A stretch of DNA of 62,962 nt, filler included, from Collodictyon triciliatum (lineage: Eukaryota), in NCBI GenBank assembly GCA_043381765.1. It is 10 parts of 10 records of this genome, joined end to end, with 100 filler letters (N's around TTAATTAATTAA, not from the genome) between each part and the next. Parts side by side here need not be neighbours in the genome. Positions count along the whole stretch, not along the records: positions 12,978 to 19,326 come from JBHJMP010004495.1; 9 more parts are not named here. The stretch is one strand, 5' to 3'. A program made the translations under genes and the position numbers. The notes beneath the pieces are model-generated. The model saw only the letters and a program-made list of their open reading frames with translations. It ran no database searches and had not been told where the DNA came from. Shown here in pieces: positions 12,978 to 13,360 of the stretch. Numbering within the stretch: position 1 is the stretch's first letter; every line of letters begins with the position of its first letter.

Positions 12978-13360
12978 TTTTCGAAAGATGAGATGGATAC
13001 AGTATGTTAATACAAAAAGAAGTGAAGAATTTTTTATGGACCGAATCGAAAAGGCATTTGGCAAGGATGTTGTACTGGCGTATGGAGACTGGAGTAGAAA
13101 ATCCCCGATGAAACATTTTGTGCCAACAATTGGAAGAGGATTACGAAAAAATATATCCAAACGTTTTGAAACAGTTAGTGCAGATGAATTTAGAACCTCC
13201 AAGATGTGCTGCAACTGCGAAAAATAACTGGAATATATGAAACTGAAAGGGAATCCAAAAAAAGCTGTATAGATGTCTCATATGTAAAGAATGCAAACGC
13301 TCAGAAAACAAAGTGTATTCATGACAAAGGACTTTACCAGCGCTAATAATATACTCAAGA
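12978..13360 (+). pseudogene. Fanzor (Fanzor1-like, eukaryotic TnpB homolog) C-terminal RuvC-II / zinc finger / RuvC-III fragment, decayed; 5' part cut off by the scaffold edge
   Basis: FRKMRWIQYVNTKRSEEFFMDRIEKAFGKDVVLAYGDWSRKSPMKHFVPTIGRGLRKNISKRFETVSADEFRTSKMCCNCEK*LEYMKLKGNPK, then a frameshift to KLYRCLICKECKRSENK, then a frameshift to VFMTKDFTSANNIL. This shows YGDWS, MK..PT..GLRK, DEFRTSK, two CxxC pairs and a (R/K)D..SA.NI motif. It is intronless, with one premature TAA (13225-13227) and two frameshifts. Confidence 0.88.

Follow-up and report, generated by a model that had tools for sequence, protein, structure and literature searches.

Does the DNA at 12979-13398 hold the decayed end of a Fanzor1 gene and, if so, to what kind of element did that gene belong and in whose genome does it now lie? 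Fanzor1 nucleases, which correspond in eukaryotes to TnpB and Cas12, attract attention as small genome-editing tools, and giant viruses are believed to be the route by which they spread. We analyzed the locus within a window of 62,962 bases, the whole stretch of DNA under study, which consists of ten contigs or scaffolds of ∼6.4 kb placed in a chain, nearly ordered by length and with no physical linkage across contigs. The spacer N44-TTAATTAATTAA-N44 at 12878-12977 separates two unrelated contigs and recurs nine times, ∼6.48 kb apart; in addition, internal N gaps were found inside two contigs (10687-11082 and 27675-27763). Our reading is that 12979-13398 is probably what remains of the 3' part of a Fanzor1 gene that no longer functions; the gene belongs to a known family, has decayed and lies beside a host gene for the tryptophan synthase alpha chain (TrpA). 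Directly observed are the homology to Fanzor1, the lesions and, within one contig, the linkage to TrpA.

Reading frames and lesions of the remnant

Of the ∼650 codons that make up a Fanzor1 gene, the final ∼136 were recognized at 12979-13398. The remnant begins at the first base of contig 12978-19326 and its 5' side is cut by the contig end. The contig lacks the ∼485 codons on the 5' side and, with the stop codon, the frame shifts and the lost end described below, offers no open reading frame for a full-length protein; the RuvC-I DPG region would fall 5' of the contig end at 12978. Since the remnant occupies the very first bases of its contig, what had been described as a scaffold break inside the element is an ordinary contig end. 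The accompanying claim that a microsatellite-free edge points to a multicopy repeat also carries little weight, because such ends are not unusual: 13 of the 20 printed contig ends terminate in a microsatellite or simple repeat, and 7, including the one at 12978, do not. (CAAAA)n-like microsatellites were seen on many contigs (13707-13830, 19222-19326, 38988-39087, 52346-52462, 61361-61463 and 62165-62962), and it is apparently such simple repeats that account for most of the breaks in the assembly. The first of these repeats, which is typical of the host, is situated between the remnant and TrpA.

Frame-by-frame translation and alignment to P0001, an intact relative of 648 residues, resolved the remnant into four consecutive pieces on the plus strand. 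Piece A (12979-13224; 82 codons, FRKM...YGDWS...ADEFRTSKMCCNCEK) corresponds to residues 486-567 of P0001 and matches residues 486-566 with 74% identity (E 1.6e-43). It contains YGDWS at 13081-13095, the Glu of DEFRTSK at 13186-13188 and the first half of the zinc finger, CCNC, at 13207-13218. The piece is terminated by an in-frame TAA (13225-13227) that is aligned with Gln568 of P0001, lies opposite Glu in P0002, P0003 and P0042 and opposite GAA in the intact viral gene of locus L003, and represents a base substitution and not an indel. Beyond this codon, the original frame continues as LEYMKLKGNPKK (13228-13264; residues 569-580 of P0001, 67% identity) and ends in an A7 run at 13257-13263, which contains a +1 shift; base 13264 is skipped in the read-through, and indels relative to L003 occur here. 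The shifted frame encodes the fifteen codons of LYRCLICKECKRSEN (13265-13309; residues 575-595, 76% identity, E 3.6e-10), which provide the second half of the zinc finger with Cys codons at 13274-13276, 13283-13285 and 13292-13294. A −1 shift at 13309, within the A-rich run AAAACAAA at 13305-13312, returns to the original frame and to the RuvC-III piece QSVFMTKDFTSANNILKKDLLSFKI (13309-13401, beginning QSVFMTKDFTSANNIL...; residues 597-621, 60% identity, E 4.9e-7). In this last piece the Asp is kept (13330-13332) and the Arg of the RD motif is changed to Lys (13327-13329); the frame stops at 13399-13401.

Intact relatives are colinear with the remnant through all three breaks. The span measures 405 nt in the remnant and 408 nt in P0001, which leaves no place for an intron. 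Homology ends after 13383, ∼27 codons before the end of P0001; a gene tail continuing past this point in another frame was considered and rejected, the best candidate being VGSFLATLTTT against VGYSSTALTVT with an E value of 23. The original prediction of a TAA at 13225 and of two frameshifts near 13257-13263 and 13310 is thus confirmed by translation and alignment, and the short open frame of 79 residues from which it had set out is present in the ORF list at 12988-13227. The proposal of three reading frames did not hold. The pieces occupy two frames, and because the first and the last share one of them, the two single-base shifts are opposite and cancel each other out. The remnant is AT-rich (35.6% GC). 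It is the single Fanzor piece in the window, in which neither the remnant nor its flank has a further copy and only the (CAAAA)n microsatellite recurs.

Family assignment, relatives and transposon type

According to Saito 2023 and Jiang 2023, Fanzor1 is a nuclease of ∼640 residues that is guided by a non-coding RNA from the right end of its transposon; its RuvC site is composed of the RuvC-I Asp, an alternative RuvC-II Glu and the RuvC-III Asp, with a CCCC zinc finger in a supporting role. Searched with phmmer against all solved structures, piece A had its sole significant matches in the Fanzor1 chains 9cf0 (5.4e-9), 9cer (3.3e-4) and 8gkh (4.1e-4). A profile of A1, our alignment of 12 full-length relatives, again retrieved 9cf0, 9cer and 8gkh, at 3.2e-51, 3.9e-50 and 3.7e-38, respectively, and the matches covered nearly the whole profile for 8gkh and separate stretches of it for 9cf0 and 9cer. 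Neither piece A nor the A1 profile matched any TnpB, Cas12 or Fanzor2 chain among the solved structures. A search of 5.8 billion proteins returned 39 of 50 candidates at E≤0.001 (best 5.7e-36), and a representative library contained 1344 family matches at E≤0.001, 246 of them at 1e-10 or better. Given the significance of these three sets of matches, the resemblance is not due to chance. Pfam assigned no Fanzor or TnpB family to the three pieces scanned, the sole match being a chance-level PHD hit (E 0.036); a Pfam scan of the relatives gave no match, although their precomputed labels are PF26935 and PF07282.

The residues that define the family can be followed through the alignment. Invariant in A1 are DPGK (RuvC-I, D364), NEFRTSK (alternative RuvC-II Glu, E555), a Gly, the Cys columns and TRD (RuvC-III, R603); the remnant keeps the Glu, all six Cys columns and the RuvC-III Asp. 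The alternative RuvC-II Glu followed by [TS][TS], as this motif is defined in PMC10530073 and PMC3627910, is present as DEFRTSK and is aligned with the invariant E555. The CCCC zinc finger is made up of CCNC and CLICKEC (13274-13294), halves that lie in different frames. The RuvC-III motif departs from the family: RD, strictly conserved according to Bao & Jurka (PMC3627910), reads KD in the remnant, whereas all 12 full-length relatives have R603. Accordingly, the anticipated Fanzor1 C-terminus is borne out by the matches to solved Fanzor1 chains, by the colinear relatives and by the order of GDWS, the Glu of DEFRTS, the four-Cys zinc finger and the RuvC-III Asp, with the exception that the conserved RD has become KD; the expected similarity to Fanzor or TnpB profiles was significant for piece A against Fanzor1 only. 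The remnant is a member of the known Fanzor1 family and not a new system.

The nearest proteins, P0001, P0002, P0003 and P0042, are 73-74% identical and come from metagenome or NCBI contigs of at most 2.6 kb. The next clade, which is 56-63% identical, includes proteins on contigs of 42 and 119 kb together with one choanoflagellate entry. The choanoflagellate proteome, from the single-cell genome of an uncultured organism, contains P0012, a relative that has 336 residues, is 61% identical to the fragment and may be either cellular or derived from an associated virus. In the nearest clade (P0001 type), 33 additional residues are inserted after RuvC-I and before the zinc finger (∼418-450 of P0001; A1 columns 429-461). 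This insert was not seen in the viral clade and is absent from the 11 other full-length relatives in A1; the corresponding region is missing from the remnant. In a tree of 41 rows, which included 19 of the related proteins and 21 of the 77 viral loci that were kept, the remnant groups with P0001, P0002 and P0042 (SH-aLRT 99). This group is placed in an unresolved fork beside a mixed clade of giant-virus and metagenome sequences, and the end branch of the remnant is 0.40 long, compared with 0.06-0.10 for its three partners. A scan of metagenome contigs for closer DNA relatives gave 184 pattern matches, among which there was one distant relative only (21% identity).

The suggested resemblance to giant-virus Fanzors is well founded for the wider family: in the viral collection, 103 of the 130 pattern matches encode a relative, and many of these are on contigs labelled as giant-virus metagenome-assembled genomes, with lengths of up to 720 kb. 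The closest clade (P0001, P0002, P0003 and P0042) was not found on viral contigs, the best viral identity to P0001 being 47%, and a viral route is therefore a step that we infer: the element may have reached its host through giant viruses.

Intact elements of the wider family are seen in the four giant-virus loci whose ends were searched. Bounded by inverted repeats and containing Fanzor1 with a divergently oriented DDE_3 transposase, they extend over 2.7-3.3 kb (L001, 4637-7952; L003, 4638-7919; L004, 4627-7949; L005, 5156-7898). Their repeats are 31-33 nt long, 97-100% complementary and share a TACACC...GGTGTA core; the right repeat begins 15-70 nt past the Fanzor stop codon, and a TA duplication would fit the flanking bases. 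In L001 and L004, Pfam identified a protein of 343-346 residues with DDE_3 and helix-turn-helix domains, encoded on the opposite strand directly upstream of the Fanzor gene. Beyond these two elements, the neighbours are the RNR small subunit, the mRNA capping enzyme and a helicase, all of which are typical giant-virus genes. A DDE_3 match was obtained in 48 of 78 related loci, and many of the remaining loci are cut upstream. In a more distant clade, the transposase match is located 1-3.5 kb upstream of Fanzor, with room for a further gene between them. The Tc1/mariner-type arrangement of Fanzor1 is already described for giant viruses (Bao & Jurka 2013, PMC3627910) and for Fanzor1c (PMC10530073).

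None of these transposon parts was recognized around the remnant. The best DDE_3 transposase match in the window had an E value of 1.7, the expected position of the gene being upstream of the contig end. The 3' flank (13402-13706), the predicted place both of a guide-RNA scaffold and of the right end of the transposon, contains no recognizable feature and no repeats that recur elsewhere in the window. Compared with 13384-13870, the right inverted repeats of the four viral elements scored 12-14, values that were reached by 162-297 of 300 shuffles and thus correspond to chance. The predicted RNA fold of 13330-13700 has a z of −0.21 and gives no sign of a structured RNA, the metagenome contigs having yielded no close DNA relatives for covariation; an Rfam scan of the contig yielded no relevant match and one irrelevant, sub-threshold match at 16986-17056. 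Because neither a transposase nor inverted repeats nor a structured RNA at the 3' side was found in the window, the transposon type is derived from relatives whose identity is just 53-60% across the 185 C-terminal residues of P0001, a stretch that takes in the region of the remnant. By this comparison, the remnant would once have been part of a Tc1/mariner (DDE_3)-Fanzor1 element such as those of its giant-virus relatives.

Among known systems, the mariner-type Fanzor1 elements of giant viruses, exemplified by PGv-1 of Phaeocystis globosa virus as described in PMC3627910, share with the remnant the [TS][TS]-x-x-C4 zinc finger, and the wider family to which the remnant belongs likewise has a Tc1/mariner DDE transposase, inverted repeats and TA-compatible flanks. 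In contrast to such elements, the remnant comprises the last ∼136 codons, is broken, carries KD and was found with neither transposase nor inverted repeats; the two are likened via the family and by description. The solved Fanzor1 proteins of Parasitella parasitica (9cf0), Spizellomyces punctatus (8gkh) and Guillardia theta (9cer) can be aligned residue by residue over the RuvC-II and zinc-finger segment with ∼30-40% identity. They differ from the remnant in being fungal or cryptophyte, intact and active with a guide RNA, whereas the copy in the window cannot make a protein. In this alignment, the Glu of DEFRTS is superimposed on the Glu of DEYKTS in the Spizellomyces protein, which, assuming the numbering of the MBP fusion, is probably the Mg-binding E541 described in Saito 2023 (PMC10432273).

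Relics of this kind have a precedent. For Spizellomyces punctatus, Saito 2023 (PMC10432273) describes 42 Fanzor loci with full-length (19) or partial genes and 'ghost' elements. Here, as in the remnant, a Fanzor1 locus in the nuclear genome of a fungus or protist is truncated or degenerate, but there are many copies with conserved inverted repeats (PMC10432273), whereas the window has one copy with no recognizable ends. Such relics are an ordinary by-product of Fanzor transposons. Fanzor2 and IS607-type TnpB, represented by mimivirus ApmFz2, are likewise described as giant-virus-enriched, RNA-guided nucleases with RuvC and zinc-ribbon elements (PMC10530073); they differ in having a serine recombinase as partner, where the relatives of the remnant have a DDE_3 transposase.

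Host linkage and origin of the fragment

The gene downstream of the remnant indicates the genome in which it lies. Beginning ∼0.47 kb from the remnant, an intact, stand-alone TrpA gene of four exons is encoded at 13875-15241 on the plus strand (Pfam Trp_syntA, E 4.9e-33; exons at ∼13875-14222, 14429-14570, 14772-14930 and 15080-15238; stop codon TAA at 15239-15241). Its product is colinear with residues 1-262 of the 264-residue TrpA of Diphylleia rotans, the closest protein (73% identity on exon 1 and 71% over the whole protein). In a TrpA tree of 119 rows, which took in 118 of the 120 listed matches, the window sequence is sister to Diphylleia with a local support of 100. On a neighbouring contig, an ORF with an hSac2 domain has its sole match in D. 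rotans (65%). Both of the two genes tested are therefore closest to D. rotans, which points to a Diphylleia relative (Diphyllatea, CRuMs) other than D. rotans as the host. The remnant would be a nuclear insertion in a protist of this lineage.

One alternative is that the remnant marks the edge of a giant-virus segment integrated beyond the contig break, an endogenous viral element in which Fanzor1 was viral cargo. Family members occur in large numbers among viral core genes on giant-virus contigs, which reach 720 kb, virus-integrated Fanzor1 elements are described in Ectocarpus (PMC3627910), and the AT-richness of the remnant would fit. Host intergenic DNA is just as AT-rich, however, and a microsatellite typical of the host and then TrpA are reached only 0.3-0.5 kb downstream. 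When 929 ORFs from the viral loci were compared with the window, 80 matched, and all 80 did so on the remnant only; matches on the downstream side included no giant-virus neighbour genes, the downstream neighbour being host TrpA. Combined with the absence of the closest clade from viral contigs, these results make an integrated viral segment unlikely.

We consider it quite improbable that the junction of Fanzor and TrpA is a chimera of assembly or amplification, or that the piece was contributed by a virus, by prey or by a contaminant, in which case it would not belong to the host genome. In favour of this view, the contigs of this strongly fragmented assembly measure ∼6.4 kb, the Fanzor piece is at a contig end, and composition shifts between ∼13500 and 13900; the last of these is countered by the observation that, all along the window, GC-rich exons regularly alternate with AT-rich spacers. 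The sequence shows no discrete signature of a junction, and a broken gene is more in keeping with DNA long resident in the host than with DNA newly arrived from a virus or from prey. Sampled words of the contig were found in public runs at a best value of 0.28, with all others at ≤0.17, which is evidence neither way.

The lesions themselves could be sequencing or assembly errors in a gene that is intact in the organism. Both shifts are located in A-runs (A7 at 13257-13263 and AAAACAAA) and cancel, every piece is 60-76% identical to intact proteins, and the catalytic Glu and Asp and the zinc-binding Cys residues are all kept; together these features leave room for sequencing error or for very recent inactivation. 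Against errors stand the TAA, which is a base substitution, and the host ORFs of 881, 656 and 303 codons, which contain 4, 1 and 1 homopolymer runs, respectively, of 6-12 bases and are nevertheless unbroken; TrpA is also intact. The lesions are therefore unlikely to be assembly errors. The change of RD to KD and the end of homology ∼27 codons early point in the same direction, so that an intact gene obscured by errors appears very improbable and all three lesions are better read as presumably real mutations. Substitutions give no independent sign of decay: invariant A1 columns are changed at 6 of 48 positions in the remnant versus 8 of 56 in intact P0001 (leave-one-out), and in a set of 25 rows the remnant changes 2 of 22 invariant columns, the other rows changing 0-4. 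Relaxed constraint was thus rejected as an additional argument, there being no excess over intact relatives.

A variant code in which TAA specifies Gln or Glu, the residues opposite it in relatives, combined with programmed frameshifting has a negligible chance of being correct, because host TrpA ends in TAA exactly at the end of the Diphylleia protein, which establishes TAA as a stop codon in this host and led us to reject it as a sense codon, and because the two frame shifts would be left unexplained.

Taken together, the segment at 12979-13398 is most likely a Fanzor1 tail that is truncated and dead, next to host TrpA in a Diphylleia relative. In a family that counts 1344 cluster representatives, a single broken fragment changes little, and its value is to prompt a search of the full assembly for any intact copies. 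The sole possible novelty is the host lineage, CRuMs: our literature search found no Fanzor report for Diphylleia relatives or for CRuMs, a deep-branching supergroup, although supplements of surveys may list such hosts. A relic in CRuMs would add a host lineage and hint at past traffic of viruses or transposons into it. A broader scenario, in which a Diphylleia-related protist was invaded by giant-virus-type Fanzor1 transposons and carries intact, possibly active P0001-type copies elsewhere in its genome, is one that we put forward tentatively and regard as unlikely; if true, it would record past contact with giant viruses in a lineage near the base of Amorphea and open up a new source there of RNA-guided nucleases of small size.

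Two further observations concern the host genes. The long open frames at 6930-9572 on the minus strand (881 codons) and 22077-24044 on the plus strand (656 codons) gave no Pfam match and may be lineage-specific host genes. After Diphylleia, the best matches of TrpA are stand-alone proteins with 60-64% identity, several of them from Chloroflexi genomes; the fused alpha-beta enzymes, which most other eukaryotes listed have, reach 48-63%; a search of a protein atlas returned only generic bacterial TrpA clusters. The stand-alone TrpA may represent an old bacterial gene transfer common to Diphyllatea.
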